Below are positions 18,483-54,750 of a stretch of DNA of 64,000 bases, piece by piece. Numbering within the stretch: the stretch's first letter is position 1; each line of letters begins with the position of its first letter. The notes beneath the pieces were generated by a model. It ran no database searches, was not told the DNA's origin, and was given only the letters and a program-made list of their open reading frames with translations. Made by a program: the position numbers and the translations under genes. This stretch comes from an uncultured Candidatus Saccharibacteria bacterium (lineage in GTDB: Bacteria; Patescibacteriota; Minisyncoccia; Phycocordibacterales; UBA2100), in the NCBI GenBank assembly GCA_964434285.1, contig CAYSUJ010000003.1:20992-84991 (forward strand), given 5' to 3'.

Positions 18483-19475
18483 TTAAAAGATTCTGTTTAT
18501 AAATCTTTTTCCGAACGCTTTTAGCTTTGCAAAAAGTGAAGTTTTTACGAACTCTTCTTCGGAAGAGCCAAAAGTCAGGTACGGATTTCGGATTGCATCT
18601 ATCATTTCAAGTCTTTCTTTTGGATTGTCTATTTCCTCATAATGAGCATCGATTTCATCTGCAATACCAGAAAAGTCGCCTACTCGCTTTCCGAGTAAGA
18701 AGTGGAAGTAATCTGAGTCTAGCGCGGGATCAAGAGACAACGGTTCCATGTCTCTTATAAAATCCATCAAAGAAGATTCTTTTGTTTTTAAGAGGAAGAT
18801 GAGAATCTCGATTGCGTTTCTTTCTTCGTCATCGAAAACAATTTCATCATTCCCCCAAAGGATTTTTGCGGCCTTTGAGGTGCTGCCTGAGATTTCATAG
18901 GTATACAGATTCTTTGCTCTCGCAGCATCTTCAATAATGGCGTGGAGTTGCGTGGTTATTTTCTTTACAGTGCGACCCATAAAGCGCTTAACTCTTAAAG
19001 AATTTTCTATCCCGAATATATTTTCCTTAGTATCAATTCCAAGATATTTACGCAGGAAGTGGTGCAGGGCTATCTTATCTTTTGATAGATCTTTAATCGA
19101 TTGCAGGTTAAATCTATCGTAACGATGAGTCTTGTAGAAAACAGAAAGAAGTCCTAGTAGAGCGATAGATGCACCGCCTGGATTAATGGGCACTCTTGCC
19201 TTTATCCTATTCAGAAGCTCTAAATGGTTATGCGTAAGAAGAGATTTTTCAAAGGCATTCACGTCAGTTTGTGCGTCGAACTCCAGAAGAATCACCGCTA
19301 CCTTAAGTAGCCTCTCAAGACCGATGGAAAGAGTGTAGAGGACTGGAAATACCTCTGTTTCCAGGCTTAAAGTCTTCATGTCATGAAGATTCTTCAAGCC
19401 GTCATATATGAAATTACAGGCAATTTCATGCTCGGTACCAAGCTGGAAATTCTGCCAGAATTGCTCGGGATTCAT
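18483..19475 (-). CDS. Hypothetical alpha-helical protein, possible Abi/HEPN-like abortive-infection protein
   Basis: 330-aa cytoplasmic helical protein in an AT-rich island context. It contains R-x(4-6)-H-like spacing (RYDRF...HH). The assignment is speculative. Confidence 0.35.
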   Translation of the reverse strand: MNPEQFWQNFQLGTEHEIACNFIYDGLKNLHDMKTLSLETEVFPVLYTLSIGLERLLKVAVILLEFDAQTDVNAFEKSLLTHNHLELLNRIKARVPINPGGASIALLGLLSVFYKTHRYDRFNLQSIKDLSKDKIALHHFLRKYLGIDTKENIFGIENSLRVKRFMGRTVKKITTQLHAIIEDAARAKNLYTYEISGSTSKAAKILWGNDEIVFDDEERNAIEILIFLLKTKESSLMDFIRDMEPLSLDPALDSDYFHFLLGKRVGDFSGIADEIDAHYEEIDNPKERLEMIDAIRNPYLTFGSSEEEFVKTSLFAKLKAFGKRFINRIF

Positions 19476-19542
19476 GGAAGATTAGTAAACACCTAAGGAC
19501 CTGGGGGTGCAATGATGTCCTTAGCAGCTATACAATACTTGA

Positions 19543-19728
19543 ATGACTGATGTGGAACTGATGACAATCAAGGAAGTTGCCGCGATGCTTAAGATATCTG
19601 AGCCCTCCGTTCGTCGCCTACAGCAGGAAAGACATGTCCCCTTCCTTAAGATTCGAGGAGCTATCCGCTTTGAGAAAACTGATATCTTGAATTATCTGAA
19701 AAAGGTTCGGATCGAATCTATCCGGTAA
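19543..19728 (+). CDS. Excisionase/MerR-type helix-turn-helix DNA-binding protein
   Basis: TIKEVAAMLKISEPSVRRLQQERHVPFLKIRGAIRFEKTDILNYL matches the HTH_17 excisionase-family DNA-binding domain. Confidence 0.7.
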   Translation: MTDVELMTIKEVAAMLKISEPSVRRLQQERHVPFLKIRGAIRFEKTDILNYLKKVRIESIR

Positions 19729-19821
19729 CCACTATTGGCCTTGTCGGTCTTTCCTGTACCGCTCTTCACTAGTAAAGCTCTGCTGTTGGCAGAGTTGCCC
19801 AAGAACGACAAAGCCCCAGGA

Positions 19822-20232
19822 TTATCTTAGACGATATCCATGGCTTTGGCGTATACCCGTTTTCGTCAAAATTACACGGACCGCTAGATAACAAAGCGGG
19901 TAGAGAATAATCGCACATGCGAGCTCAAAATATTTACTGAGAAATGCCTCTGGTCCGTTTATCAGTCCGACCAAAAATAAGATGCCGAAATAAAGATAGT
20001 GGTAGAGAAGACTGCCCAATGGTCCCCATCGACCAGTTAGAATGTATAACAAAATAACGAACAACAAGAGGCCGATTAGTATCCCTAGAATTTGGAATGG
20101 ATATGCGACAAGGATAGACATTCCGGCTTCCCACAGCTGGCGATATGCACCTTCAAGCGCCCTGTCGTACATGGCAGGAATTCCAGAAATCATTTCTGTA
20201 ACCATCTCGACTGGCGTAGAAGTAGAAGTCAT
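19822..20232 (-). CDS. Hypothetical membrane protein (136 aa, 4 TM)
   Basis: Hydrophobic ORF. The stop overlaps the start of the upstream gene, which is typical of operon organisation. Confidence 0.45.
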   Translation of the reverse strand: MTSTSTPVEMVTEMISGIPAMYDRALEGAYRQLWEAGMSILVAYPFQILGILIGLLLFVILLYILTGRWGPLGSLLYHYLYFGILFLVGLINGPEAFLSKYFELACAIILYPLCYLAVRVILTKTGIRQSHGYRLR

Positions 20233-21290
20233 TTTCCGAGAATTAATTTGACCAAATCTTCTTCTTTTTCATAAGCACGAAATCGTCCCTCAAGCATCCC
20301 GAGTCGATAGTGTACTCCCTCGCTCATAAGCCGCCAATTGGTGCCTATTAGCGTCTTATTTATGAGTCTTTTCAGATCATGACTACTTGCTCGCTCTTCC
20401 CTGTCTGAAGCGATGTCATGAACAGTAAACGGCACAACGACATCACGACCAATCTCGGGATCTTTGAACTGGAGCTTGATATATTTGGCAGCCTCCATAG
20501 CGGGAGCCAATAATTGTTCTAGCTCGATGATTTTCAGTCTTCGTATATTCGCCACCTGGTCGTACAGCTCTTTGTTATTATCTTTCTCCTTCTGTTTTTC
20601 GAGAACCTCATTGATACTCCGCAGCGTCTGCATCCATCCCACATACCTCTGCCCTTCCGCCTCATCGCAGAACCGCGCACGATCCTTCTCGAAATCAGGA
20701 TCTATTTTTGGCTTATCAGCAATCCGTTCGATTTCGCTCACTTCCCTGTTTCCGCACTTAGGACAGGTAGAAATTGTGACAAACTTTTTCTTGGTAGTCT
20801 TGTCTTCCTGCTTGAAAGACGTCCTGCACTTCGGACACTTGGAGCTGTTGTATTTCCATTCTTCGCTGTTGTCATAGAAGGCGCGGCGCGGGATGTGATT
20901 CAGTGTGCAGTCGTACATGAACATGACCCGATGCGGCTTATCTAAATTCGTCTCCATATGCTTATGTGTGACGAACATCTCTCTGCCACAGGTAAGGCAG
21001 TTGATGCCCTTAGGAGCCTTTGCCGATTCGAAGAACTGGTCTTTTTCTTCGTCATCACGCATCCATTGAGTAATGGTTTTTTCCTTCTTTGAATACAGCT
21101 CCCCTGCCAAGAACCATACATGGAGTCGGCTAAAGGCACCGACCATGCGTTCCTTATCTTTCTTCGTAAGCTTCTTTTTCTCGTGCTTCTGAATGTCTTC
21201 TCCCGAGATCGCTTTTTCCGCCCAGCGACACCGTTCGATCGTCATGCGATCATAGCGATCTACATATTCCTGACGGGGCTTAAGATGCAT
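20229..21290 (-). CDS. Hypothetical protein with multiple zinc-ribbon motifs
   Basis: CLTCGREM, KCPKCRTSF and CPKCGNREVSE CxxC pairs. Lys/Glu-rich. No enzymatic domain recognised. Confidence 0.45.
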   Translation of the reverse strand: MHLKPRQEYVDRYDRMTIERCRWAEKAISGEDIQKHEKKKLTKKDKERMVGAFSRLHVWFLAGELYSKKEKTITQWMRDDEEKDQFFESAKAPKGINCLTCGREMFVTHKHMETNLDKPHRVMFMYDCTLNHIPRRAFYDNSEEWKYNSSKCPKCRTSFKQEDKTTKKKFVTISTCPKCGNREVSEIERIADKPKIDPDFEKDRARFCDEAEGQRYVGWMQTLRSINEVLEKQKEKDNNKELYDQVANIRRLKIIELEQLLAPAMEAAKYIKLQFKDPEIGRDVVVPFTVHDIASDREERASSHDLKRLINKTLIGTNWRLMSEGVHYRLGMLEGRFRAYEKEEDLVKLILGK

Positions 21291-21300
21291 AGGACGCTAT

Positions 21301-22002
21301 TTATTCATCCATGAGCTTTTTAGCTTTTTTGCGTAGCGCCTCAAGCTCTGCAAACTCCTCTTTATGGTGTTTAAGCTGAGCATTCATTAACCACGGGAAG
21401 GTGGTCTTATGAAGATAATCATGCGAGATTTGAAACACACCCACAGCGGATTCCTTCTGTAGCTGTACGAATTTCTCTCCTTTTGAGTAATAGCCTGATT
21501 CTTTATCTAATTGATCAATAAAAATCACAAATTTCGTAACAAATTCCTCGTCAACCATTCGACTCTCAAGTCCCAATGGCGGTAGTTCATCATGACAATA
21601 GATATTCCTGAGACATTCTATAAAACCCACTAAAGGATCCTCAAGAAACTCATCCTTAATCTTCTTAGCATACTCGCCATTTAATGCAGCTTCGTCGGAC
21701 CCATATAATTTCCGAATCATTTTTCTACAATGATCTTTATATGCGACTGCACTGCAGAGAAAATTTACAAAACATCTGGAAGCTTCAATCATTACTTTCT
21801 CTTTCTCCGTTTCCTTACCTTTTGGGAAAAAAGGAATAGCTTTCGTTATCTTTTCAAGATAACCGTAATTTATCACCATTATTTTGAAACTATTCTCCAG
21901 CCTATACGCATGGAGATCGAGTTGATATCCACGAGAACTTTCAATTTCATCAATCACTTTTTTAAATTCCTCAAAATTCTTCATATTATGAATCACTCCC
22001 AT
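21301..22002 (-). CDS. Hypothetical protein (233 aa)
   Basis: AT-rich helical ORF. No family recognised. Confidence 0.4.
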   Translation of the reverse strand: MGVIHNMKNFEEFKKVIDEIESSRGYQLDLHAYRLENSFKIMVINYGYLEKITKAIPFFPKGKETEKEKVMIEASRCFVNFLCSAVAYKDHCRKMIRKLYGSDEAALNGEYAKKIKDEFLEDPLVGFIECLRNIYCHDELPPLGLESRMVDEEFVTKFVIFIDQLDKESGYYSKGEKFVQLQKESAVGVFQISHDYLHKTTFPWLMNAQLKHHKEEFAELEALRKKAKKLMDE

Positions 22003-22410: not shown

Positions 22411-23730
22411 ATGGAAAAGCTCATTTGGCATACCCAACAGCGGAAAGTAAACGAATTACTCCCCTTCAAGCAGAATCCTCGCAAGATGTCAGAAAGACAG
22501 ATTGCCGACCTTACCAAGTCTCTCAAGAAATACGGCCTCGTGGAGATCCCTGCTATCGATACGGATAACCGAATCCTAGCGGGTCATCAGCGACTCGCTG
22601 TCATGCAGCTCCTTGGTCGCGGCGATGAGATGATCGACTGCCGCATTCCTAACCGAAAGCTGACAGAGGAGGAATTTAAACAGTACCTCATCATTTCCAA
22701 TAAGGTGCATGGCGACTGGGATGAGGACATTCTTGCTGAGTACTTCGATATGGACCTTCTTCTTGATTCCGGATTCGATACCGAAGAATTGAGTGATGTT
22801 TTCTCAGAAGCCCTCGAAACAGAAGATGACAAATTCGATATCGAAAAAGAGTTAAAGAAGATTGAAGGGCCGAAGTCCAATTCTGGAGAACTGTATCAGC
22901 TTGGTCAGCATCGCCTTTACTGCGGAGACTCAACCAATCCCGAATCAGTCCTGAAAGTGGTCGGGGACGCGAAGATCGACATGGTGTATTGCGATCCTGT
23001 GTACAACATTAATCTTAGCTACAAGACAGGGATCGGCGGCACAAAAAACTATGGCGGGTCTGCCAAAGATGTTCGCTCCCCCGAGGAATACGAAACATTC
23101 TTGCACAAGACTATTGAGAACGCACTCGCTGTAGCCAAGCAAGATGTGCATGTCTTCTACTACTGCGATCAGACGTATGTCCCACTCATCGCTAAGCTCT
23201 ATGCCACGTTGGGCATCCGATTCATGCGCACCTGTATCTGGCTCAAGGGAGTGGCCAATCCAGTGCCGCAGGTCGCCTTCTCAAAGGTATATGAGCCCTG
23301 CGTATACGGCGTGCGCGGAAAGCCCTACCTCTCCCCTCACCACACCAACTATGACGAGGTGCTGAACAAGGAGATAGGGACTGGTGGTCAGATGATCGAG
23401 AATTTCCTCGACATGATCGATGTCTGGGCAGTGCAACGGCTCTCAGGCAGCGAGTATGAACACCCTACCGAGAAGCCGGTGACCCTCCATGACAAGCCGA
23501 TACGCCGCTGCACGAAGATCGGAGACAACATCCTTTCTCTCTTCGGCGGAAGCGGTGGTGAGCTGTTAGCAGCCCATCAACTCAACCGGAAGTGCTTTAT
23601 GGTCGAAATGGACCCTGTCTTCGTGGATCTCATTATCAGGCGCTACGAGGCATTTACCGGTGAGAAAGCGAAGCGTATCAGTGTACGAAATACGGACCGG
23701 AAATCGTTGAAAAGATTTGTCAGGAGTTGA
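22411..23730 (+). CDS. ParB-like nuclease N-terminal domain fused to a beta-class N6-adenine/N4-cytosine DNA methyltransferase
   Basis: N-terminal ParB/Srx fold (PAIDTDNRILAGHQRLAV). MTase motif IV DPVY (VYCDPVYNI) precedes motif I FGGSGGE near the C-terminus, which is the N6_N4_Mtase arrangement. No cognate restriction endonuclease gene is nearby. Confidence 0.75.
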   Translation: MEKLIWHTQQRKVNELLPFKQNPRKMSERQIADLTKSLKKYGLVEIPAIDTDNRILAGHQRLAVMQLLGRGDEMIDCRIPNRKLTEEEFKQYLIISNKVHGDWDEDILAEYFDMDLLLDSGFDTEELSDVFSEALETEDDKFDIEKELKKIEGPKSNSGELYQLGQHRLYCGDSTNPESVLKVVGDAKIDMVYCDPVYNINLSYKTGIGGTKNYGGSAKDVRSPEEYETFLHKTIENALAVAKQDVHVFYYCDQTYVPLIAKLYATLGIRFMRTCIWLKGVANPVPQVAFSKVYEPCVYGVRGKPYLSPHHTNYDEVLNKEIGTGGQMIENFLDMIDVWAVQRLSGSEYEHPTEKPVTLHDKPIRRCTKIGDNILSLFGGSGGELLAAHQLNRKCFMVEMDPVFVDLIIRRYEAFTGEKAKRISVRNTDRKSLKRFVRS

Positions 23731-24272
23731 ACAAGAATCCGAATATTAGCTACGTCTGCCGGAAAGTCGGTATCGACAAGAGCACATTCTACCGATGGCA
23801 GTCCAAATACGATACGTTCTTTCGCCGCATCTTGAGCGCGGAGATGTGGGGTCGGGAAAACATCAACGACGTGGCGGAAAGCGTCATCCTAAAAGCGGTT
23901 CACGCGGGTGATATGAAAGGTTCACAATACTGGCTCAGCCATAATCATCCGCGATACGTCGCTCTTGAACGAATCCCGTACCTCGCAAGCCTTAATAAAA
24001 GCCTGATTGAAGAGTTAAGTGCTCCGATCTCCAAAACATCCAAGTTCGAGCCGCTCTTCGAGTATTATTTCATCTGCGAAGAAGTGCAGAGGGATAAAGA
24101 AGCACGAAAGATGGTGGAGCCGCTCGTTAAGGTTGCCTGCGACGGCGACGAGGAACTTTACGAACTATTTTTTGCCTCGTATGCTGAGTGGAAAGCAGAA
24201 AAGATACGGATAATTAAGGAATATATCGATGCGGGGATTAGGCCGCCTCGCCCCAAACGTCGTAGAAGGTAA
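23727..24272 (+). CDS. Hypothetical protein (181 aa)
   Basis: Translationally coupled (ATGA overlap) to the methyltransferase gene. The N-terminal segment has a possible HTH. No confident family. Confidence 0.4.
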   Translation: MNKNPNISYVCRKVGIDKSTFYRWQSKYDTFFRRILSAEMWGRENINDVAESVILKAVHAGDMKGSQYWLSHNHPRYVALERIPYLASLNKSLIEELSAPISKTSKFEPLFEYYFICEEVQRDKEARKMVEPLVKVACDGDEELYELFFASYAEWKAEKIRIIKEYIDAGIRPPRPKRRRR

Positions 24273-24743: not shown

Positions 24744-25128
24744 ACGATTTTCTCCTTATTGGATAAATCGATGGCGGCTTTGAGACACACAAAGCCCGCC
24801 ACCAGGAGGGCCGAAGCCCCTACTAGGGTTTCCCCTAATAACGCGATGAACGCCCTGAATGACGGGTTGTCTATGTTCATCGCGATTCCTACGACCATGC
24901 CACCGTTGCCGATAGTTTAGGTCGTCGCCCTCTCGGGCCAATATTGGGTATGTAAAGAGCATAATAGCCCCGACTCGGCTATTGGCCAAGACCCTAGCAG
25001 ACCCCAGGTGTTTGCGAATAGGCTTCCACTACCACACGACGATTCAATGGCTTTGCGAAGTTAAACCACCCACCCGATGATTGGGGTAAGTATGATGGTC
25101 TTACAAATGGCTTTTTTCACAAACAGTC

Positions 25129-25731
25129 CTACTTACGCGCGTCAATTATCGTCCGCACGTACTCTTTTAGCTGTTCCTGAGAAACTTCTGGCCATTTTTT
25201 GAGCTTGTTTTCCGTAAGAGAGTTCACGCAAATGACCAAAGACGGCACATCAGGATTCGGCGTCTCGAAAATCATGGTTGCAGTATTCGGTTTGAGTGCA
25301 ATTGCGTCGTGGAATACTCCCGCTTTCATTTTGTATGCTGATCCGACTGAATGGGTTATATCTTCACGCGTTGTAAGTGAGCATCTCATTCTTGTCATCT
25401 CAAGCGTAGAACTGTCTCCATGATTTTTCACTTCCCAGATTTTATAGTCCCCGTCCGGATCCAACGTCACATCATAGCGGCGTTCAAAGCCCTCTCCACA
25501 TAGGATATGGCTGGTGAAGTCAAAAGAGTGGTTGTGAATTCTGTCGGGCGCACCAAGTTCATCGACATTCATTGCCTCGGGCCAAAAGCGCAAACGAATT
25601 TTTCGAGGCCCTCCCTGGTCAACCTTTGCATGGATGAATCCGAGAGGGTGCATGTGCCCCTCGATTGACAACTTACTCTCGTAAATATCAGAGAGAATCT
25701 GATCTAATTCACTGTCAGATAGATATTCCAT
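25129..25731 (-). CDS. Hypothetical cupin-like protein
   Basis: IHNHSFDFTSHILCGEG resembles a cupin metal-binding His cluster. It is the last gene of the co-directional operon. Confidence 0.35.
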   Translation of the reverse strand: MEYLSDSELDQILSDIYESKLSIEGHMHPLGFIHAKVDQGGPRKIRLRFWPEAMNVDELGAPDRIHNHSFDFTSHILCGEGFERRYDVTLDPDGDYKIWEVKNHGDSSTLEMTRMRCSLTTREDITHSVGSAYKMKAGVFHDAIALKPNTATMIFETPNPDVPSLVICVNSLTENKLKKWPEVSQEQLKEYVRTIIDARK

Positions 25732-26461: not shown

Positions 26462-27214
26462 TTAAGCTATATCCGGCAAATTGCCGACCTTTTTTATAAC
26501 AGTTTCTAAACTCGCGAGGAGCGATTCTTCCGAGGGATCAATCGTAAGATCGGGCTTCGATGGTACTTCATACGGCATATCCTCGCCGATTTTGCCACCT
26601 TTGATATAAATCCAAAATGGGTTAATGAGTTCTGTGATTTTATCCCGCGTCGATTGAAAAGGAGCTATAACTGATACAACGACGTTGAATCCTTGGGCAT
26701 TCAGCATTTTCGCCAACCGAGCGACGCGCATATTATGTTCGTCGCGATCTTCTTTGCTGAACCCTAGATCAGTTGAGATCGATGCTCGCAACTCGTCTCC
26801 ATCGAGTACTACAGCATTCATCCTTTCCTTCAAGAGGTATGCAATCGAAGTTTTGCCAGCCCCAACATTACCAGTGAGCCAAATGATTCCCTTTTTGCTG
26901 TTTCTGATTTTCGTTGCCGAGATTTCTTCAACCTGTTTCTCCAGACGGATGCGTCTGATACCCCATCCAACATCACGCCCATAGCACACCTCTTTGATAT
27001 CTGGTATTGCGATGATCTCGACGTTCTCGTTATCCTCGTACACTTTTCTTATTCGTGCCATTCGTTCTTCGACCGTGTACGGATTACCCTCCGAAAAAGG
27101 AGTATCCCTCACTGCAATGACAACTTTCCCGCCCTCGTCGAGTACGACCTGTATGAGGGCTTTATGTCCGTCGTGAAATGGTTGCCACCTGCCGATGAAT
27201 AGTGATTTGCTCAT
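26462..27214 (-). CDS. Bifunctional TagD-like HxGH cytidylyltransferase / APS-kinase-like P-loop kinase fusion
   Basis: The N-terminal domain has FIGRWQPFHDGH (HxGH) and ISATKIR (ISxTxIR), the nucleotidyltransferase signature of the glycerol-3-P cytidylyltransferase/NMNAT family. The C-terminal domain has GNVGAGKTS (P-loop) and LDGDxLR...DLGFSKEDRDEHNMR, the adenylylsulfate-kinase family signature. Start trimmed to MSKSLFIG (ATG at 27214) to remove the overlap with the MAT gene. Confidence 0.65.
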   Translation of the reverse strand: MSKSLFIGRWQPFHDGHKALIQVVLDEGGKVVIAVRDTPFSEGNPYTVEERMARIRKVYEDNENVEIIAIPDIKEVCYGRDVGWGIRRIRLEKQVEEISATKIRNSKKGIIWLTGNVGAGKTSIAYLLKERMNAVVLDGDELRASISTDLGFSKEDRDEHNMRVARLAKMLNAQGFNVVVSVIAPFQSTRDKITELINPFWIYIKGGKIGEDMPYEVPSKPDLTIDPSEESLLASLETVIKKVGNLPDIA

Positions 27215-27218
27215 AGAT

Positions 27219-28454
27219 TTACGCCAAATCGTATTTGCCCAATAGTATCTGGTCGGTTGTTCCTGATACATTGCTCACAATCTTAGATACGATGTCGTTT
27301 GTAAGCTGCGGATCTAGCGGCTTACTCGAATTTACAATCACAGACCACGGAGTATCTATCGGCTTATCGGACTGGCTAACTATAAAGACTTCACACGGTA
27401 TTCCCATTTCTTTCCATATCTGCTGGGCGATGTCCCATGCCATTGCTGAATACAGTTTTCCTGCATGATACTGCGGATTCTTTCCGCTTAAGCCCTCGAT
27501 ACTAAAGGGTCTTCGAGACGAAATAACGCCGCCTAAGCGATTTCCACGCGCCACCTGTCCTTCGTCGCCGGATTCAATACAAGACCCCGTGTACAGAAGA
27601 TAGAAAAGATCGTCCCGCTGACCATCTGCCGTATTCAGGGTGAAGTTGATATTAAGGGGTTCGTATTTGTCGCAAATCTTGCGAATGAACGATCTTATTT
27701 CTTCTAGGTTCACTTTATATTCTTTCGGCGAAGCAACTTCGGTCGATATCTGTGGCACACAAAGCGTCAAATCAACATCCTGTCCCCGCCTGACGGCCAT
27801 AATTTTTATGTCATAACCAAGCCATGAATAGGTTTTCCTGGTCTCATCAGCATTCAATGTCTGCTCAACTTCAAGCACTAATCGCTCAAGAGGCGTGTAA
27901 GGTGCCCAACCACAACCAACAGCGGTGTCGTTCGCGACAGGGCGCGTATATTCGGGTAAATCGGTCAACTTGCCAGGACGAAAGCGTGAGTATGCGGAAG
28001 AACGAGCGGTATTACTGTCCGCCGGTTGTAGCCCTCGGGTTGTATTTGAGGTAATTTCGACCATCAGCCGACAGTTGGTAAGAAAGTCAAAATTTCTTAA
28101 TTCCCTTTCCAAAAAGTCAGATGCGGCACCCACAAGCGCGTCGCGATAGAGTATCTTTTCCTCCCCAACTTGAGGCGTAACTCGCCCATTGATAAGTAAC
28201 CGCACTGGGGATACGAAATTACCGCCACCAAAGCGGACATCGCATTTCCCGCCCATCAACGAGAGCTTGTCGAACTGATGTCTCAAAATTGTTCCAAACT
28301 TATCCCTACAAATCTGGGCATAGGTACGAGACAAGAGTTCCGCCAGCCGATCCGCCAGAGTGTCAGGGTGTCCACGCCCTTTGCGTTCAACAATCTCAAA
28401 ATCAGACATCGAGAGATCCTCTAAATTGGTTACGAGATTCAGGTTAAGGGACAT
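27219..28454 (-). CDS. Archaeal-type methionine adenosyltransferase (SAM synthetase, PF01941 family)
   Basis: Alignable throughout to M. jannaschii MAT: [18 protein letters not shown] vs [50 protein letters not shown] vs [57 protein letters not shown] vs [41 protein letters not shown]...[20 protein letters not shown] vs GDDGSVGRGNRVNGLI...MSMEAASGKNPVNHVGKIYN. Confidence 0.85.
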   Translation of the reverse strand: [411 protein letters not shown]

Positions 28455-28466: not shown

Positions 28467-28976
28467 TTAGCTAAATACATCCTTTGCAATGAGTTTTTGC
28501 CATTTCTCCTCATTCCAGTCACGCCAGCCCTGTATAACCTCATCTTTGAGCACATCCGGCACGATTTCAGGCGGACTTCCGAACGAGTTAGGAAATGTAT
28601 CATTGATGTGTTGATCCTGTAAAACAGGCCACTTTGTGAAGCCGCCCATGACGGGAGAACGTAGGCCAAATACAACCCTTTTGATACGTAACTCCTGAGT
28701 GGCAAAGGCACACATGGGGCAAGGCTCAACCGAGGAATAGAGAGTCGATTCCGCCAGCTCATCCGGAGTAAGAGCCTTTTGTGCATCCAAAAGGGCTAGC
28801 ATTTCTGCATGACGGTATACCTCGCTCTTATCAAGAGCTTCGTTGTGTCGCTCGCTAATGACTTTGCCCTTAAAAACCACCAGGGCACCAAAGGGGAAAT
28901 CCTTACTTCGAGAACCGAGGGCGGCAACTCGGATACATTGGCGCATATACATGGCATCGTCGTTCCTGTCCTGCAT
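28467..28976 (-). CDS. CMP/dCMP-type (cytidine deaminase fold) zinc deaminase
   Basis: The HAEMLAL (H-A-E) and PCPMCA (PCxxC) zinc-binding motifs of the CDA superfamily. The size and architecture resemble TadA/guanine-deaminase-like nucleoside/base deaminases. Confidence 0.7.
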   Translation of the reverse strand: MQDRNDDAMYMRQCIRVAALGSRSKDFPFGALVVFKGKVISERHNEALDKSEVYRHAEMLALLDAQKALTPDELAESTLYSSVEPCPMCAFATQELRIKRVVFGLRSPVMGGFTKWPVLQDQHINDTFPNSFGSPPEIVPDVLKDEVIQGWRDWNEEKWQKLIAKDVFS

Positions 28977-28996: not shown

Positions 28997-30049
28997 TCAG
29001 CCTTTTATCAAAGTCCGCCTTAGCTTTCCCCTTTCAGATTCAACAAATTTCTCTGCATATGCATGATTTTCTTCACTAATCTGCCTGCGTTTTTTCTCGC
29101 TGTCAGGCTCGAAGCTTCGGTTTTTTTGCGGATCTTTTGAGTATGTCTTTGTACGCTCCAACATTCCTTGGACTTCAGGGTTGGTCAGAGATAAGTTCCA
29201 CGCTGAATCGAGTATTGCGGGAAGTTCACTGGTAATCTGCAAGTAGTCCACAAAAAGCGCGTTCTGGTCATCATGTGCGAGTGCCTTTTTACAAAAAGTA
29301 CCGAGGAGACGGCATGCATACTCGCCATCGGTCAGAGATTCGGTTTCCGATTCACTCAGCCCAAGTATCGGAGCAAAGAACGACACATGAGTATGGCGGC
29401 TACGCATCCAGCCCGGTGGATCCCGCAAGACGGATTCGAGTACTTCTGCTCCATTACGATGAGTGAACATCCATCGAACACTTGGATACAAACTCAATAT
29501 CTCATCAATGAATAGAATATTCCAACTACGAAACTTTACGAATACACGCTCGCAGTGATCGGGCTTGCAGGCATAAATCGCACTGAGAGCCGCCTTAAGG
29601 AGTTGTTGCTTCGTTAAACCGCCAGGCAATTTCAGCGCAGGGTTCAATATCGCAAGTGCAATAGTTGGTTCTGACACAACATAAAATCGATCCACCGTTG
29701 CCAGCATCTGCATTGCAAGTGTGGATCCACAACGAGACATGTGGAAAATAAAGTGTGTCCCTTGTTCGTTAATATTCCTATCTTGAAAGTCGCGCGCAAA
29801 CACGTCAACTGGGACAAGTTCAATTCGCGGATCGTTCATATCGTAATGTAGCGGACGAACCAATACATTTTGCTCCTCTCCGATGAGCTTATTTACATCC
29901 GCCACACGAAACTGACCAGCAAGAGAATCGAGAAAGAACGGGTCTGTCAGGTTGATCTTCGGTACTTTTGCAAGAACAACATGACATTCCCCATTGGCGA
30001 TGTGTAAATCGATAGGGAGTGATACGGTCTTGTTTGACTTTTCGTCCAT
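28997..30049 (-). CDS. Sulfotransferase family protein (PAPS-dependent)
   Basis: FIFHMSRCGSTLAMQML matches the 5'-PSB loop of Sulfotransfer_3-type enzymes. A downstream 3'-PB-like region is present. It is co-operonic with the APS-kinase-like domain. Confidence 0.55.
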   Translation of the reverse strand: MDEKSNKTVSLPIDLHIANGECHVVLAKVPKINLTDPFFLDSLAGQFRVADVNKLIGEEQNVLVRPLHYDMNDPRIELVPVDVFARDFQDRNINEQGTHFIFHMSRCGSTLAMQMLATVDRFYVVSEPTIALAILNPALKLPGGLTKQQLLKAALSAIYACKPDHCERVFVKFRSWNILFIDEILSLYPSVRWMFTHRNGAEVLESVLRDPPGWMRSRHTHVSFFAPILGLSESETESLTDGEYACRLLGTFCKKALAHDDQNALFVDYLQITSELPAILDSAWNLSLTNPEVQGMLERTKTYSKDPQKNRSFEPDSEKKRRQISEENHAYAEKFVESERGKLRRTLIKG

Positions 30050-30055: not shown

Positions 30056-31078
30056 TCACGTTTGGTGCCCCAAAAGTTGTTTGAGGATATGGTCTGATAT
30101 ATTCGGCAAGGTAATGCGGTCGGAGATTCCGAGCGCCGCGGCAACACCATTGATCGCACGTACGAAGTTTATGCTTCGTATCAAATCCCCGCGTTGACGC
30201 TTGTCGAATACGCCACGCGGTTGGCGCACAAGATATTCTTGTGCCTCTTTGTAGATTGGCTGAGTAGGCACCGGCATCGCATCAATGAGTTTGTAACTCC
30301 ACGAACCATTTTCCTTAAAGAAAATCACATTATCCTCCCCAGCAAGCGCGAGAATCTGCCCCTCATTCTTGGCGTACGATATTGCCTTTTGAACGAAATC
30401 TATAAGGGCATCTTTGAGACCAGAATCAGTGTGCGCACGCTCAGTAAGGTGCGTGAGGAACCTCCCAGACGAAAGGTCTTGGAATTCCAAAAACTCCTTC
30501 TCGTCCACCTGCCGCCCCTCAAGTAAGTCATGCGTCATTTTGAGATAAACCGCTTCGTCTTGCGAAGAGTTTTCAGGATAATTACCGAAAGAAAAAGCCA
30601 GACGTCCTGGATATTCGGCTTCTTCACTAAACTTTTGGACAGCGACGTGCGTCCATACACTTCGGACTTTTCGTGCCTCTTCGGGCAACTTTCTACCAAT
30701 GTAATCGTCGCGGAATAATTCCTCCAATATCTCGGCCGAGATGGGAACCTGCATCAAATAACGCCTTTCTTGCAAAGCATGATCCGATCCGAAATGCCTC
30801 CAAAGATTTCGCGCTTCTGCGTTTTTGCGCCACACATCCCCGGCCGAATACACTTCGGCGTACGCCCGCATACTGTCTTCATCCGTAATACCCTTTGTGT
30901 AGCATTCATACAAAATGTCTTTGATTTTTCTCCAAGAGGCCTTAACGACCAATTCGGGATGCTTAGGAACGCGATACACTAAGTGATCTCCACCTCGCTT
31001 ATAGAACTCGGGCTTGAAGCGCGAAATAATATCGGCATCCTCCGGCAATTTATCAAATACTCCCTTGTCCAAATTCAT
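30056..31078 (-). CDS. Hypothetical protein, possible atypical kinase-like fold
   Basis: No clear motifs except a Gly-rich GGDHLVYRV near the N-terminus and scattered conserved Asp. The kinase assignment is speculative. Confidence 0.35.
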   Translation of the reverse strand: MNLDKGVFDKLPEDADIISRFKPEFYKRGGDHLVYRVPKHPELVVKASWRKIKDILYECYTKGITDEDSMRAYAEVYSAGDVWRKNAEARNLWRHFGSDHALQERRYLMQVPISAEILEELFRDDYIGRKLPEEARKVRSVWTHVAVQKFSEEAEYPGRLAFSFGNYPENSSQDEAVYLKMTHDLLEGRQVDEKEFLEFQDLSSGRFLTHLTERAHTDSGLKDALIDFVQKAISYAKNEGQILALAGEDNVIFFKENGSWSYKLIDAMPVPTQPIYKEAQEYLVRQPRGVFDKRQRGDLIRSINFVRAINGVAAALGISDRITLPNISDHILKQLLGHQT

Positions 31079-32067
31079 ACTTTTTGAAAGTAACTTTTAA
31101 CGACTTTATCTCCGGCGTGCAAAAGCTCTTCTCGGGAAACGATGTCCAAAACCGTAAATTTATCGTCACGCGGACGAACCCGTCCAAGTACAGAAACTAT
31201 TTGATCGGCCGTTGTATTTTCCTGAATGTACTCGTGCATATCCACGTCTTTTTTAAGATACTCAACAATAGTATCAGTTATTGCATTCCCGTATCCCGCC
31301 TGCACCTGCAGTTGCTGTGTTACGAGAATCCCAAATAACAAGCCCATGCCATGCGGACACGCCTTTTCGCTCTCAATGTAGGAAGAAATGATGTGTTCTG
31401 ACCCACTAACCAATCTTCCGCTTCCCTGCAGTCTTGTAAGACTACCGGATTCAAGCAAACAATCGAGTAATTCCTTGAGTGCTTCTCGGGTGAACGGCTG
31501 GGAGAGTAAATCCAGAGATCTTTGAGCCAGCTTTTGTGCGCGACCACGCAAGGCAGAATCAAATACCTCACGGTGACGCTCGACAGCAATATCACAGTCT
31601 ACTTGAGCCGTGGCAGTTGCCGCCACCTCAACGATACCGAATTTATTTAGAATGTACGCCTGTTCCAACAAGTCAAAGTCAACAACGATTTCACTGGCAA
31701 CAACAGAATTGGAACTGAGCTTGCCGTGTTCAGAATCGAAAAAACTATTCCGGTGAGTTGCAAAAGAATTTGTAGACAGCGCGGACGGAATAAAACAAAA
31801 CGTACTATTCGTTTTGTGGCAGATATATTTAACAACATCAACAACTGTTCCAGCACCTATGGCGACTATCCGTGCATTTTTCTGCTTAAAATCACGAAGA
31901 AAAGTATCAAGGTCATGACGGTCGGCCCTCGCAACTTCTAAAACATTAAAGCGGGTTTTAGCTAGATGCTTTGTGTAATCGTTGACGATATAGAGATCGA
32001 AGTCCTGTTGCGAGAGATAATCTGCCACCCCACGAAAGGTCACTTTTGGGTCTGGTAGGGATAGCAT
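31075..32067 (-). CDS. DHQ-synthase-like / Fe-ADH superfamily enzyme (sugar-phosphate cyclase or glycerol-1-phosphate dehydrogenase-like)
   Basis: RIVAIGAGTVVDVVKYI is the Gly-rich NAD-binding turn. The domain order and the SGSEHIISSYIE metal-site-like region are typical of the DHQS/G1PDH/glycerol dehydrogenase superfamily. Start trimmed to MLSLPDP (ATG at 32067). Confidence 0.55.
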   Translation of the reverse strand: MLSLPDPKVTFRGVADYLSQQDFDLYIVNDYTKHLAKTRFNVLEVARADRHDLDTFLRDFKQKNARIVAIGAGTVVDVVKYICHKTNSTFCFIPSALSTNSFATHRNSFFDSEHGKLSSNSVVASEIVVDFDLLEQAYILNKFGIVEVAATATAQVDCDIAVERHREVFDSALRGRAQKLAQRSLDLLSQPFTREALKELLDCLLESGSLTRLQGSGRLVSGSEHIISSYIESEKACPHGMGLLFGILVTQQLQVQAGYGNAITDTIVEYLKKDVDMHEYIQENTTADQIVSVLGRVRPRDDKFTVLDIVSREELLHAGDKVVKSYFQKV

Positions 32068-32210
32068 ATTGTCTCCTATTTTCCGCTGTCTTCGGTGGCA
32101 TACTAACAAAAATGATGAGGAAATAAAGGCTTTTAGGCTACTAAGTTACCAACACCTAAGGTTTCCGAGGCGTCCTTGACTCCCTAAGGGGTCAGCGTCA
32201 TTCATGGGAT

Positions 32211-33536
32211 ATGGAAACTACAACAAGAGCCACAGGGATTATCGGCAAGCAGGTCGTCCAAGAAGCGGTCAAAGTAAGGTACTGCTTGTATGCGAGAAAG
32301 AGCACCGAGTCGGAGGAGCGGCAAGTGCTCTCGATAGATTCGCAAATCAAAGAGATGCTTCAACTGGCGGAGCGAGAAGGCCTTGAGATCGTTGCCATGA
32401 AGCGTGAATCGCACTCCGCAAAAGAGACGGGTCAGCGGCCAGTCTTCAATGAGATTGTTAATGAAATAAAGGCTGGCAAATACAACGGCATTCTCACATG
32501 GGCGCCGGATCGTATCAGCAGAAATGCGGGCGATCTTGGTAAGGTTGTGGACTTGATGGATTCCGGTGGTTTACAGGAAATTCGGACATACAGTCAAAGT
32601 TTTCGGAATAATCCGAACGAAAAGTTTCTGCTGATGATTCTCGGGTCGCAGGCGAAGCTCGAAAATGATAACCGAGGCATGAACGTGAAGCGCGGTCTGC
32701 GAACGCGCGTTGAAATGGGTCTATGGCCGACAACTCCGCCGACCGGATATTTGACACAGAAAATGATGGACAAGAAATGTCAGGTCGTTATCGATCCTGA
32801 GCGTGCGCCCATCGTCAAAAAGATGTTCGAGAAAGTGGCGTACGAAAAGTGGTCGGGTCGGCGTGTGTACCACTGGCTCCGATTCGAGCTGAACTTCCAT
32901 ACGACGGGCAACAAGCCGCTCGCCTGCGGCAACGTGTACCGTACGTTGACTAACCATTTCTATTACGGTGTCTTCGAGTTCCCGAAGAAGAGCGGAAACT
33001 GGTACAACGGCAAGCACGAGCCGATCATCAGCAAGGAATTGTTCGACGAAGTGCAGAAACAGTTGAAGCGTGACAGCATTGTGCGTCAAAGTCGTGAATT
33101 CGCGTTCACGAAGCTCATAACGTGCGGCCTGTGCGGATCAACCTTCAGCGCGGAGGAGAAGTACAAACAGCTCAAAGACGGCACGGTCGCAAAGTATATC
33201 TACTACGGCTGTGGTCGTGCCAAGGATTTACACTGCAAGAATACGTACCTACGCGAGGAAGAGTTGATCGAGCAGATCATAAAAGCATTTGATCAGGTAG
33301 ATTTTAACGAACTAGGGATTCAGCATAAGTTCGAGGAAGAGCTGCGCCGATTCAACAAGTTCCAACGCGGTGTACTTGGCTTCTCTGGCTCAAAAACGAC
33401 ACACGAGGAGGTAGATTTACGTACTTACGCGAAATACACCTTGAAGGAAGGTACAGGTGCCGAAAAGCGCGAGTTAATGGGATGCTTCAAATCGAGGATC
33501 AAGATTACTAAAGGAATAGTGACTATCGAGCAATAG
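32211..33536 (+). CDS. Large serine recombinase (resolvase/invertase N-terminal catalytic domain plus recombinase domain plus zinc ribbon)
   Basis: YCLYARKSTESEERQVLSIDSQ carries the catalytic Ser in an RxS(T) context. Resolvase fold, then a Recombinase domain and a C-terminal Cys cluster CGLCGSTF...YYGCGRAKDLHCKN. Confidence 0.85.
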   Translation: METTTRATGIIGKQVVQEAVKVRYCLYARKSTESEERQVLSIDSQIKEMLQLAEREGLEIVAMKRESHSAKETGQRPVFNEIVNEIKAGKYNGILTWAPDRISRNAGDLGKVVDLMDSGGLQEIRTYSQSFRNNPNEKFLLMILGSQAKLENDNRGMNVKRGLRTRVEMGLWPTTPPTGYLTQKMMDKKCQVVIDPERAPIVKKMFEKVAYEKWSGRRVYHWLRFELNFHTTGNKPLACGNVYRTLTNHFYYGVFEFPKKSGNWYNGKHEPIISKELFDEVQKQLKRDSIVRQSREFAFTKLITCGLCGSTFSAEEKYKQLKDGTVAKYIYYGCGRAKDLHCKNTYLREEELIEQIIKAFDQVDFNELGIQHKFEEELRRFNKFQRGVLGFSGSKTTHEEVDLRTYAKYTLKEGTGAEKRELMGCFKSRIKITKGIVTIEQ

Positions 33537-33555: not shown

Positions 33556-36500
33556 TCACCCCTCTTCCTGTAGTGGCAGATCTGAAACAAAAAGTTTAAT
33601 TGCTGCCGCTTTGTTCTTGAATACAAATTGTACTTTCTCGTAGATGTTTATGAGCACTCTACGACGCAGATATCCCTCCTTGTCTGCATACTCCCTCAAC
33701 CAAGCTGGATCTTGAGAGATGAGCTTGGCTCGGGCGGCATCGTCTTTATTCAGATCAGTAACTTTCAATTCAAATATTTCCTCCCTGTGAGTCTTATCCT
33801 GTGTGTCATTGGTTGGTGCGTACTGTACTAGCTCGCCCAGCTCCTTGAGCGAGGTAACCACGAGAAAGTTTTTGACATCTGCGTCATTAGTAAATACGCG
33901 GAAAATCGGTACGTATTTTTCTCCTATTTTGAAATAACCATCGCACCAGCGGTCCTCGTCAAACGAGGACTTTGGACGATTTCGATGATCCCATCGAGGA
34001 ATAAACGCCTCCGACCTTCGTATCCCTCCGTCATACTCGAACATGTGGTCGAGCGACTCGATGACGATGAGATTTTCGTCATCCAACGTCAAAATTGCTC
34101 TTTCAACTGCGGGGACGATATCATTCTTTGGAATAGTCTCTTTGGTTTCTAGGCCCTCAAGGATGTCACGGAAAATAATCTGACTCTCCGAGCTTGCCAT
34201 GCCATTGCCATAATTTTCGCCCCATCCGGCGTAGTGGACATGCCAATTTTTTATAAATGCGGCCTTCTCATCCAACTGGTTGTAGCCATACGCTTTAACC
34301 TCTGCATTAGCGGTGTCAGTGCGATCAACATACGTACCCGCTCTCGTGATGATGCTTCGGATTACGCTTCCATCATGAAAAGCATCGAGAAAAGATTTTT
34401 TGAATTCAGCCAGCTTCTCGGGGTCTATGTCCGTCCGTTTGACACGCTCCTCCTCGTCTTTTTCCTGTGCGTCTTTTGCTTTGGTCAGTAATGTTTTTAG
34501 TATGCCTGTCTTGGAAAGTGCAACTGTATCCAAAATAAATTCCCAATTTGTTGGCGAAGTTTCGATATCGGTAAGTAGTTTCCACAAAGCGCCATCGCGC
34601 TGCTCTGCAAGGAACGCCAAATCACGATTGTGAGGCAGCTCAATCGTATCCACATTGTCTGATGTGACCCCTCTTAAGAGAGTGAGGGCATTCACTGCGT
34701 AGAGCCGGTCGAGCTTACTATTGAAATCTATAGTATGAACTTCACCGTCCGGTATGAGTTCCCAATTATCCCAATTCCAAAATCGCTCAACATCGAAATC
34801 TCGAGCCGAAGAATAAAGAGTGGTGAGCTCTTTTATTTCATGCGGCAGATAATTTTTAATATCATTGTAATAAGCTCTAAGCTCCGTATCGTTCTGATGG
34901 AGGCGCACCATCTCAAAAATCCAAGTCGCCATGCCAAACACTAACTGCTGCTTGCGGCGCTGAATTTTCTCGGTGGCGTCCTGTCGAGCCTTCTGCAGAT
35001 CTAGCTTTTCTTGCAATATCTTTTTCTCCTCATCAGTCCGCGCAGACTCAAGGTCGTATTCGCTATAACGCGAGAATTCTTGGTCGCGTATCAAGTGACG
35101 GTAGAGAGTATTTAATTGGGACAAAAATTCTTTAAAACTATCCCTATCGCGCTTGTCGAAGGCGGTTTTGATGAGGTCCTGAAAAGTCTGGAAAACGGGT
35201 ATCGAGAAGTCAGCATACTCCGTCAATTTCTTTGCGTCGCCAATCTTGCGAGTCAACTGATTTTCTATGTAGTAGTCAGTAATTTCCTTCAGATGCCTCC
35301 ACGACCTGTCGATCATGAACTCTCGTAATGAAGGTGCGAGGCCTTCTGTTGTAGTTGCGAGCCAATACACTCGTGACGGAAACCGCACAAACACTTGATA
35401 CAGGTACTGATCCCCATACTTGATAGCGCGGGTAGCAATGGCCATCGGCAGATAAATGACGGTCGAGATAATTTCTCGATCGCGACTTTCTACAGCCTTC
35501 TCGACAATGTCTTGGATACTGTCTTCAAGCCACCCTATATTGAGCTGGCCACCAAAAAGATTCCCGCGTTCCTGCTTGGCCTGATCGTAACTGAAACCGC
35601 CGCCACAACGCGTGATCATCTCAAGGAAGGACTCGGAAAGACTTAGGTACGTTTTTCTGAGATCATCGATCTTGCCGAGCTTTTTCTCTACGATAGCGGT
35701 AATGAATTGATCCTTGAGTCCCGCCAACTCCAGATTGACCTCCTCTGAAAAATTATCCTCTTTGCCAATGATGAAAGCCTCTTGTGCCAGTTTTTGCAAT
35801 TTCTTAAGCACACCTTTGTCGGTGACACTGCGTTTCTCCACGGCGAGCAATATCATGTTGCCCGATTCGTCCCTATCTTTGAATTCAACGCGATCGGCAT
35901 ACTTTTTGACGAGGAATTGCCGGACCGTAGTGTAATTTCTGGTCGCCGACGAGGATGGAGTTGAGGCTGGGTCACCCGCTGAGAGCGTTGGCGGGCGCGG
36001 CTTGTCTTTATAAAAACTGAAGCCATTTTTATTCGCCTCACTCTCAGCGAGCTTGGCAAACTCGTCCAGTTTGTCGAGTCGTATATCCTTGACGACACCC
36101 GCTGTATCCGCAGAAAACGCATGGTGAGTCTCTTCCTCGTCACTCATCAAAAACGGATTATACGTAAGCTCGATTTTGTTCTCGCCCAACCTCTGTATAA
36201 GAAGATTGTCGGCGTAGCGTTCATTCATTCCCAAGTCGATGCTTTGCTCAATACGATCTTTGAGGAGACGCATCCGCTTTTCATAAAACAGTACCTTGCT
36301 GAGCAAGATGTTCACGAGTCGCCATAGAGAAATTATTGTAAAAATTCCCACCAAAAAAACCAGCACTGCACTCCATGCATTTACATCGAACCAAATGAAA
36401 TTCAGAAATACGAGGATTTCTCCTACAGTGAGCGGAAATAGCATGCTCTCGCGTAAGTACACCCGTGCGCGATCTTTCGTCTCGTCGTCTCTAACGCTTT

Positions 36501-37134: not shown

Positions 37135-37221
37135 GGCGGAGGGTGAGAGATTCGAACTCTCGGTGGGTTACCCCACGCTCGCTTTCCAAGCGAGTGCACT
37201 AGACCACTATGCGAACCCTCC
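37135..37221 (-). tRNA. tRNA-Ser(GGA)
   Basis: Manual fold of the reverse complement. Acceptor GGAGGGU/ACCCUCC, U8, 3-bp D-stem with a GG-containing D-loop, anticodon stem CUCGC/GCGAG with loop UUGGAAA (anticodon GGA). Long variable arm GUGGGGUAACCCAC, T-arm GAGAG-UUCGAAU-CUCUC, discriminator G. CCA is not fully encoded (CCC). Confidence 0.85.
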
Positions 37222-53697: not shown

Positions 53698-54750
53698 ATG
53701 CTGCACTTATTGAAAACTTACACGACAGAAAGCGTCACGAGCGGTCACCCCGATAAGGTGTGCGACCAAATATCAGATGCGATTCTCGATGCCTGCCTTG
53801 AACAAGACCCACGCTCGCGCGTCGCGGTGGAAACGTTTGGTTCGCACGGCACACTCATGATCGGCGGCGAAGTGACGACGAACGCAAAAGTGGACATGGC
53901 AAAGATTGCCGAGAATGTCTACAAATCAATTGGCTACACACAAAAATTGAAGATCTTGAATACGGTCGCGAAACAATCAAACGACATTGCACAAGGTGTC
54001 GACACCGGTGGCGCTGGCGATCAAGGCATCATGTATGGCTATGCGACAAACGAGACGAAGGAGATGCTTCCACTCGGCGTCGTGCTATCGCACGCACTCG
54101 CCCGTCGCCTTGAAAAGCTTCGCCGTGACAAGACCTGCCCTTGGATAAAGCCTGACGGCAAGACACAGGTAACGATTAAAGATGGCAAGGTTGTGACCGC
54201 GCTTTGCTCAACACAGCACGCAAAGAACATCTCCCAAGCTGATATTCGCAAAGATCTAACCAAACACCTCTTTAAGCCAGTGCTTGGTGATTTGAAAGGA
54301 ATCGAAATCCTCGTAAACCCAACGGGCAAGTTCGAAATCGGTGGATTCGAAGCAGACGCGGGGCTCACCGGCCGCAAGATCATGGTTGATACGTATGGCG
54401 GTCTTATGCCGCACGGTGGTGGTGCGTTTTCAGGCAAAGACGCGACGAAGGTTGATCGTTCTGCAGCCTACATGTGCCGCTTTGTCGCCAAAAATCTCGT
54501 CGCAAATGGCTGTGGTAAAAAGGTGCTCGTAACGGTCGCGTATGCCATTGGTCGTGTCGAGCCCGTTATGGTTGAGGCATTCAACGAAAAAGGAAAAGAC
54601 CTCTCAAAAATCGTGCACAAGCACTTCGACTTTCGCCCGAAAGCGATCATCGAGCGACTCGAACTGCGCACGCCTATCTTCCGCGAAACTGCCGCGTACG
54701 GCCACTTCGGAGTCGAGGGGCGACCATGGGAAAAGGTGGAGAAATTGTAA
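53698..54750 (+). CDS. metK: Methionine adenosyltransferase, bacterial type
   Basis: The ESVTSGHPDKVCDQISDAILD N-terminal signature. GAGDQG, central and C-terminal MetK domains are present. Start set at the ATG preceded by GGGGGA. Confidence 0.9.
   Translation: MLHLLKTYTTESVTSGHPDKVCDQISDAILDACLEQDPRSRVAVETFGSHGTLMIGGEVTTNAKVDMAKIAENVYKSIGYTQKLKILNTVAKQSNDIAQGVDTGGAGDQGIMYGYATNETKEMLPLGVVLSHALARRLEKLRRDKTCPWIKPDGKTQVTIKDGKVVTALCSTQHAKNISQADIRKDLTKHLFKPVLGDLKGIEILVNPTGKFEIGGFEADAGLTGRKIMVDTYGGLMPHGGGAFSGKDATKVDRSAAYMCRFVAKNLVANGCGKKVLVTVAYAIGRVEPVMVEAFNEKGKDLSKIVHKHFDFRPKAIIERLELRTPIFRETAAYGHFGVEGRPWEKVEKL

Follow-up and report, generated by a model that had tools for sequence, protein, structure and literature searches.

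A bacterial subfamily of the archaeal-type methionine adenosyltransferase family with a changed methionine pocket and a sulfotransferase partner on mobile DNA

Methionine adenosyltransferases (MATs), the S-adenosylmethionine (SAM) synthetases, are seen as housekeeping enzymes with a single purpose, and their PF01941 class is considered essentially archaeal. Extra metK copies are well known in biosynthetic clusters, where they are ordinary bacterial MetK feeding SAM to methyltransferases or radical-SAM enzymes. Here we analysed a PF01941 gene of an uncultured Candidatus Saccharibacteria bacterium, located in a stretch of 64,000 nucleotides (assembly GCA_964434285.1, contig CAYSUJ010000003.1, positions 20,992 to 84,991) that we call the window and which also encodes a canonical MetK. 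The two genes are:

27219..28454, minus strand: RHQFD-type adenosyltransferase from PF01941, the family of archaeal-type MATs, 411 aa, assigned by Pfam, PDB alignments and residue pattern
53698..54750, plus strand: canonical bacterial MetK, housekeeping SAM synthetase, 350 aa, with PF00438, PF02772 and PF02773

A sequence-only reading of the window had proposed that the first of these genes is a horizontally acquired SAM source dedicated to a modification pathway. We found that its product belongs to a bacterial subfamily, designated RHQFD after its motif, in which the ligands of the methionine carboxylate are replaced and whose gene stands next to that of a sulfotransferase. On balance, we favour the view that the RHQFD enzyme is the obligate partner of this sulfotransferase in a mobile cassette building a sulfated SAM-like metabolite, and that it is not the SAM supply of the cell. 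The finding is more unusual than had been proposed, and from it we infer a product and a function.

When we compared the 411-aa RHQFD protein with the described archaeal MATs (MJ1208/MjMAT, PfMAT, TkMAT and SsMAT), we observed that it shares with them the fold family, the histidine of GHPD, the ribose-binding aspartates, the adenine-stacking tyrosine, the GKNP..H..GK motif and the Asp-Leu pair of the gating loop. It differs by an identity of 35-42%, by Arg and Gln in place of His and Asn and by a gating loop about 20 residues longer, due to an insertion, with conserved Thr and Arg residues; moreover it is bacterial, accessory, paired with a sulfotransferase and below the NCBIfam cut-offs for MATs. 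The bacterial PF01941 proteins of HHNFD type (such as P0114 of Bacillus sp. A116_S68, and numerous ones in Patescibacteria), a sister group in a neighbour-joining (NJ) tree, have in common with it the long gating loop, a GDEG motif and a location in a cassette. Unlike the RHQFD proteins, they keep the canonical His/Asn ligands, they have no sulfotransferase neighbour in any of 20 informative loci and their cassette is a different one. As for the pathway-dedicated metK copies of natural-product clusters, they are likewise extra MAT-family genes in accessory operons of hosts that keep a housekeeping MetK, but the RHQFD proteins belong to the other MAT class, have an altered pocket and are not accompanied by a conserved SAM consumer. 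To our knowledge, coupling to a MAT has not been described for any sulfotransferase of the family that uses 3'-phosphoadenosine 5'-phosphosulfate (PAPS), and we found no description of a MAT-sulfotransferase cassette in the searchable literature (searched for PF01941, bacterial archaeal-type MAT, and MAT with sulfotransferase and defence).

Catalytic core and methionine pocket of the RHQFD clade

The 411-aa protein matched PF01941 (AdoMet_Synthase) with an E value of 6.9e-90 and 302 bits, for a Pfam gathering threshold of 27. Archaeal MATs of the PDB were aligned with it over residues 5-407 with E values from 2e-71 to 2e-59, among them those from P. furiosus (6s81, 2e-71), M. jannaschii (7p82, residues 11-404, 2e-68) and S. 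solfataricus (4hpv, residues 5-407, 3e-60). The full-length homology to archaeal MATs claimed by the sequence-only reading was thus confirmed, and every motif that it had quoted is present (residues 20-31, 75-83 with FGGGNFVSP, 174-195, 296-306 and 323-333). With the five NCBIfam MAT models, equivalog and subfamily, the protein remained under every cut-off (435-577), its best score being 312.8 bits for a cut-off of 481.

We then read the active site in an alignment of 260 family members, to which the PDB alignments contributed the sequences of P. furiosus (Pf) and M. jannaschii (Mj), using the residue roles described for archaeal MATs (PMC3853416, PMC9298006). According to these studies, H29 of the GHPD motif is catalytic, Y285 stacks on the adenine, D297 contacts the ribose and the alpha-amino group and forms with D215 the ribose aspartate pair, and a set of Lys, Arg and His residues binds the triphosphate. 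Among the sequences searched, the RHQFD subfamily comprises 112 clusters at 90% identity. Residues H29, D31, K25, D176, D215, K217, Y285, D297, R303, N305, K325, H330 and K333 are invariant or nearly so in these 112 members, and D165-L166 of the gating loop, equivalent to Mj D146/L147, is conserved as well. Such invariance over 112 sequences that are 40-100% identical indicates selection for catalysis; judging from these residues, the RHQFD-type protein almost certainly has adenosyltransferase activity. The sequence-only reading had left the conservation of the active site to be checked: the residues for catalysis and ATP contact have been kept and the ligands of the methionine carboxylate are changed. 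The tight translational coupling with the sulfotransferase gene and the altered substrate pocket could also suit a catalytically dead scaffold of MAT fold, or a regulator of the sulfotransferase. We consider this very unlikely, since the catalytic histidine and the residues binding triphosphate, ribose and adenine are retained throughout a clade of such wide divergence.

In archaeal MATs, the methionine carboxylate is bound by H58 and N60 in Mj or H62 and N64 in Tk, within a motif HHNxD (PMC3853416, PMC9298006). We observed that R58 and Q60 (motif RHQFD) replace Mj H58 and N60 in 112 out of 112 clade members. None of 92 HHN-type proteins has Arg or Gln at the carboxylate-ligand positions, His and Asn being there by definition of that set. 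Other residues are fixed in the clade, namely E133, T139, R140, G308, S336, R157, where the bacterial sister group has Trp, and D363, which is Gly elsewhere. The positions contacting the methionine side chain are mostly hydrophobic, with L166 and with Ile or Met at position 362 in 90 of the 112 members; in the protein of the window, position 362 is a Ser. From this pattern, the substrate is probably a methionine-like thioether amino acid held in a remodelled and more basic pocket.

We computed an NJ tree of 257 family members with the motif columns left out of the alignment; the RHQFD proteins are monophyletic in it, and their sister groups are other bacterial PF01941 proteins. The archaeal affinity of the gene suggested by the sequence-only reading did not hold, its nearest relatives and its sister group being bacterial, and a recent transfer from an archaeon was rejected for the same reason. 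Because the protein fails the curated equivalog thresholds and lacks the usual methionine-carboxylate ligands, we class it, from its sequence, as a member of the RHQFD subfamily, a variant filed apart from the methionine adenosyltransferases. Changed motifs at the carboxylate site also occur in other PF01941 subgroups (P0121-P0270 of the alignment), with NHWVD in 10 sequences, HHWFD in 10 and NHAVD in 3; these subgroups may be further specialised lineages of the MAT family.

Could the enzyme nevertheless be an ordinary SAM synthetase, acquired with its operon and boosting SAM for a SAM-consuming modification pathway, as the sequence-only reading held? Its full-length homology to characterised archaeal MATs, with catalytic residues and methionine side-chain contacts present, is in favour of this idea; Arg and Gln could bind a carboxylate, a DNA methylase gene lies in the same island, and there is the precedent of the extra metK copies of biosynthetic clusters. 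We regard it as unlikely. The scores are under all MAT equivalog cut-offs and the host already has a conserved MetK; the H58R and N60Q replacements are fixed in the clade and correlate perfectly with the sulfotransferase partner. In addition, no SAM-using fold is conserved across the 93 loci that we collected, in which the sole constant partner is the sulfotransferase. A role as SAM source is therefore doubtful, with scores below the NCBIfam MAT cut-offs, carboxylate ligands replaced clade-wide and no conserved SAM user.

The sulfotransferase and its linkage to the adenosyltransferase gene

The gene of the partner protein is:

28997..30049, minus strand: PAPS-type sulfotransferase, 350 aa, assigned by a weak match to PF13469 (Sulfotransfer_3-like), by fold and by motifs

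The AlphaFold2 (AF2) model of this protein has a predicted local distance difference test score (pLDDT) of 94.6, and its 35 fold matches in the PDB at E<=1e-3 are all PAPS sulfotransferases, including retinol dehydratase, TPST1/2, Stf9 and CurM-ST. In 44 homologues we found invariant the 5'-phosphosulfate-binding (5'-PSB) loop HMSRCGST at 103-110, E127, K172 and, in the 3'-phosphate-binding (3'-PB) motif, R198 and S206. By its modelled fold and these motifs, the partner is a PAPS-dependent sulfotransferase. The best structural matches are retinol dehydratase and CurM ST (hydroxyl activated as leaving group) and the tyrosylprotein sulfotransferases, with which it shares the PAPS motifs; it differs from them in that the TM-scores are just 0.4-0.5 and in having a supplementary domain of some 95 residues at its N-terminus.

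The 93 loci were searched with family hidden Markov models (HMMs) and linkage was counted after dereplication at 95%. The sulfotransferase gene adjoins the MAT-family gene in 31 out of 32 informative RHQFD loci, against 0 out of 20 for HHNFD loci (Fisher test, 1.7e-13, uncorrected for phylogeny). An overlap of 4 nucleotides between the two genes is common. The pairing is maintained in Alphaproteobacteria and in the most divergent RHQFD subclade, at 45% identity. In this subclade (L012 10257-11321; L039, L042, L049 and L063), the gene after the sulfotransferase-MAT pair encodes a P-loop protein of about 350 aa resembling HPr kinase, and it stands in place of the accessory genes of the window.

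Another recurrent family, F4, is found in other genomes. It is a 165-aa protein present in 16 loci, which has no Pfam or PDB match and which we call haloacid dehalogenase (HAD)-like solely for its D..T..K..DD pattern. A 521-aa metagenomic protein (P0317) is a natural fusion of F4 with the sulfotransferase, and thus ties F4 functionally to the sulfation step.

The cassette of the HHNFD-type genes has its own composition: a Peptidase_S51-glycosyltransferase fusion (32 loci), a zinc-ribbon protein of about 406 aa (26), inositol-1-phosphate synthase (10) and paralogues of prolyl- and seryl-tRNA synthetases (ProRS/SerRS). We observed it in Bacillus sp. A116_S68 (CP058292.1; L006 1783-15586, with an ABC transporter in addition) and in some 30 loci from metagenomes, L052 and L060 among them. 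The cassette has the appearance of a second uncharacterised pathway, to which this MAT would be dedicated.

The operon, its putative island and the native MetK

Eight minus-strand genes, of which the PF01941 gene is number five, run from 32109 to 25129 with intergenic gaps of -4 to 72 nucleotides; a terminator-like hairpin (25092..25067) comes after the last one. Besides the adenosyltransferase and the sulfotransferase, the operon encodes:

31075..32109, minus strand: Fe-ADH_2 / glycerol-1-phosphate dehydrogenase (G1PDH)-like dehydrogenase, first operon gene, 344 aa, PF13685 at 4e-13
30056..31078, minus strand: F15, a conserved 340-aa protein present in 10 loci, with a homologue beside the sulfotransferase in Allosphingosinicella
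28467..28976, minus strand: deaminase of cytidine deaminase (CDA) fold (TadA / guanosine / dCMP deaminase-like), 169 aa, PF00383 at 3.5e-20 and PDB matches
26462..27214, minus strand: fusion of a nicotinamide mononucleotide adenylyltransferase (NMNAT)-like nucleotidyltransferase with adenosine 5'-phosphosulfate (APS) kinase (NT-APSK), 250 aa, PF01467 and PF01583
25804..26451, minus strand: histidine phosphatase (branch 1), 215 aa, PF00300 at 3.8e-30, in 20 loci
25129..25731, minus strand: 200-aa protein, last operon gene, found elsewhere only in contig L013 of the same genome

The dehydrogenase reaches 59 bits with the G1PDH equivalog model, for a cut-off of 413, and its PDB matches are glycerol dehydrogenase and G1PDH; its family occurs in 14 of the 93 loci. 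With the TadA equivalog model the deaminase obtains 70 bits (cut-off 150), and it is found in 16 loci, each time immediately upstream of the MAT-family gene. NT-APSK matches APS kinase (1e-19) and NMNAT (2e-5) in the PDB and probably supplies PAPS; 18 loci have either the fusion or APS kinase alone. The gene caller places its start at the ATG at 27214, after the stop codon of the MAT-family gene, which removes an apparent overlap of 53 nucleotides between the two genes, the longer mechanical open reading frame (27215-27271) being probably overextended. For F15 we obtained no match in Pfam (even at E<=1), NCBIfam or PADLOC and an empty PDB profile search, and its single-sequence AF2 model was unusable (pLDDT 46); inspection of its motifs suggests a possible kinase-like fold. 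The last protein, of 200 aa, has no family match in Pfam or NCBIfam and is not kept in related loci.

The accessory set differs among loci, and the flanking genes are unlike in every locus. Across the 93 loci, we did not detect any methyltransferase, radical-SAM enzyme or other known SAM-using fold conserved with the MAT-family gene. The recurrent families (sulfotransferase, histidine phosphatase, F4, G1PDH-like dehydrogenase, deaminase, NT-APSK and F15) have no known SAM-using fold, nor does the HPr-kinase-like protein of the divergent subclade. Seven loci (L001, L014, L019-L021, L034 and L036) have, close to the MAT-family gene, a gene for a UvrD-like superfamily 1 (SF1) helicase of 600 aa, convergent with it in L020 (8233-10032); the window has no counterpart of this helicase.

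The operon is located in a stretch of low GC content, 0.42-0.48 between about 18 and 37 kb of the window against 0.50-0.54 in the flanks. The genes of the cassette have a GC content of 0.445-0.49, against 0.50-0.56 for flanking genes. The other features of this putative island are:

22411..23730, plus strand: N6/N4 DNA methylase, in the same island, with a long N-terminal extension
23727-24272, plus strand: helix-turn-helix (HTH) protein resembling a transposase or a small terminase subunit, overlapping the DNA methylase gene
32211..33536, plus strand: large serine recombinase, divergent from the operon, with Resolvase, Recombinase and Zn_ribbon_recom domains
33556-36972, minus strand: 1138-aa protein, membrane segments at its N-terminus, encoded between the recombinase and tRNA-Ser
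37135..37221, minus strand: tRNA-Ser(GGA), at the right-hand edge of the low-GC stretch, found by ARAGORN

The 1138-aa protein has no match in Pfam, NCBIfam or PADLOC and is not conserved beside the cassette elsewhere. The extension of the DNA methylase appears ParB-like from its sequence. Together with the HTH protein and three low-GC genes at 18483-22002 (GC 0.37-0.47), the methylase looks like a remnant of mobile elements. The boundaries of the island are only approximate, because no att direct repeat of at least 14 nucleotides, or beyond chance, was found flanking it, around tRNA-Ser or at the contig break near 24.6 kb. Contigs of an independent Logan assembly, made from the same sequencing run (SRR14932609), end inside tRNA-Ser, at 37136 and 37165 (an overlap of 30 nucleotides), and at about 24604. 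They delimit a segment of 12.5 kb, from about 24604 to tRNA-Ser, which contains the cassette, the recombinase and the gene of the 1138-aa protein, and no repeat accounts for the breaks. The breaks in tRNA-Ser may mark a junction that varies within the population and the segment may be a variable unit; a search for an empty-site allele with the exact HtpX protein returned contigs of the same population only. The sequence-only reading had placed the gene on an island, inside a candidate modification operon: the low-GC stretch, the recombinase and the tRNA would suit an island, and nothing shows modification of DNA or RNA by the operon.

Canonical MetK, which the sequence-only reading had located correctly at 53698-54750, has the three expected Pfam domains and a TIGR01034 score of 440 bits for an equivalog cut-off of 309. 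Its homology starts at the ATG at 53698, so that the start of the mechanical open reading frame (GTG, 53500) is probably too early. Its relatives make up more than 120 clusters, 79-96% identical, all of 350 aa and named Minisyncoccia, Kaiserbacteria or Patescibacteria, and its GC content is like that of the flanks. With so many Patescibacteria clusters at such identity and uniform length, MetK is the native and vertically inherited enzyme of this lineage, that is of a host resembling Kaiserbacteria.

Close relatives are far less numerous for the PF01941 protein than for MetK, and they are scattered taxonomically: Zambryskiibacteriota (89% identity), Paceibacterota (87%), Saccharibacteria (78%), unclassified Patescibacteria (75%) and, outside Patescibacteria, Allosphingosinicella of the Alphaproteobacteria (63%) and Ferruginibacter of the Bacteroidota (52%). 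The copy of Allosphingosinicella outranks many Patescibacteria copies in identity. The patchy relatives across phyla, the flanks that differ at each locus, the low GC content and the nearby recombinase and tRNA support, on sequence comparison, a horizontal acquisition of the PF01941 gene. The sequence-only reading was right on this point and also in taking the gene for a pathway-dedicated one distinct from the housekeeping MAT, since MetK is native. The reverse scenario, which makes the PF01941 gene the MAT inherited vertically from the ancestor and MetK the acquired copy, is hardly credible, and the dense Patescibacteria ladder of MetK led us to reject it. Some Patescibacteria do carry PF01941 genes, but we found no evidence supporting this scenario. 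It conflicts both with the uniform length and flank-like GC of MetK and with the lower GC of the PF01941 gene, its adjoining recombinase and tRNA, its neighbourhood that differs in every relative and its relatives in other phyla.

Several homologous loci lie near Wadjet, type I restriction-modification (R-M), C5 DNA methylases with Vsr, SMODS or TnsA genes, and others, including many of Patescibacteria, are in ordinary neighbourhoods. The first of these settings could suggest a back-up SAM synthetase carried by defence or mobile islands, which would sustain SAM-dependent restriction-modification when phages deplete SAM or inhibit MetK. Since the MAT fold here is unrelated in sequence to MetK, phage inhibitors of MetK might not act on the RHQFD enzyme. 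We consider such a role improbable: it would leave unexplained why the enzyme has an obligate sulfotransferase partner, accessories such as APS kinase and phosphatase, and a remodelled pocket, and it does not fit with the many loci in ordinary neighbourhoods. No relative of the PF01941 protein was found in viral contigs, so that a phage origin is without support. When the operon and the large neighbouring proteins were scanned with PADLOC-DB 2.0, the MAT-family protein, the sulfotransferase and F15 gave no match, and marginal ones appeared only for the deaminase and kinase domains.

A proposed pathway to a sulfated SAM-like metabolite

From the partnership with the sulfotransferase, we infer the following substrate, product, order of steps and role. 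In the RHQFD enzyme, the sulfur of methionine or of a methionine-like thioether amino acid would attack C5' of ATP. The remodelled, more basic carboxylate pocket would hold the thioether substrate, and the added arginines may accommodate an extra anionic group. The product would be a sulfonium nucleoside of SAM type. The sulfotransferase, with PAPS provided by NT-APSK, would act either on this nucleoside or on the thioether precursor before adenosylation. The histidine phosphatase, or F4 in other genomes, would remove 3'-phosphoadenosine 5'-phosphate (PAP) or a phosphate protecting group, and the deaminase, the dehydrogenase and the kinase-like proteins would tailor the product. The end product would then be a sulfated adenosyl-sulfonium metabolite and not SAM as a methyl donor.

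Several points weigh against this proposal. Arg and Gln are able to bind a carboxylate, so the product may be ordinary SAM. The retention of L166, of the hydrophobic residues at position 362 and of D297 speaks for methionine, or a compound very close to it, as nucleophile and not for a radically new one, and the changes at E133 and R58 might be a compensating structural pair away from the substrate. Gene adjacency is a correlation, and the Fisher test ignores phylogeny; the acceptor of the sulfotransferase could be unrelated to the product of the MAT-family enzyme. The N6/N4 DNA methylase (22411..23730), a SAM-using enzyme, shares the island with the PF01941 gene. Finally, only the neighbourhoods of some loci suggest a defence role, PADLOC having no model that matches the core genes.

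We propose, more tentatively, that the RHQFD enzyme and the sulfotransferase make an undescribed sulfated adenosyl-sulfonium nucleoside, which would be a sulfo-SAM or else a SAM analogue derived from a sulfated thioether. Mobile cassettes would spread its synthesis among Patescibacteria and other phyla, and it would serve as an antimetabolite or as an effector directed at phages or acting between bacteria. This more specific version is possible, and we would sooner doubt it than expect it.

A bacterial subfamily with a clade-wide change of its pocket and an obligate sulfotransferase points to an uncharacterised pathway of adenosyl transfer and sulfation, carried by mobile DNA and found mainly in Patescibacteria, a group with a poorly understood metabolism. 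Genes of this kind now bear the unsupported names 'methionine adenosyltransferase' or 'S-adenosylmethionine synthetase', and such annotations call for caution. MAT variants that take unusual substrates are sought after in biocatalysis. If the proposal is true, a new SAM analogue would be of interest to SAM enzymology, biocatalysis and natural-product discovery, and possibly to the study of phage defence; the RHQFD proteins would then represent a new branch of MAT enzymology, and their products a new class of SAM-derived metabolite.

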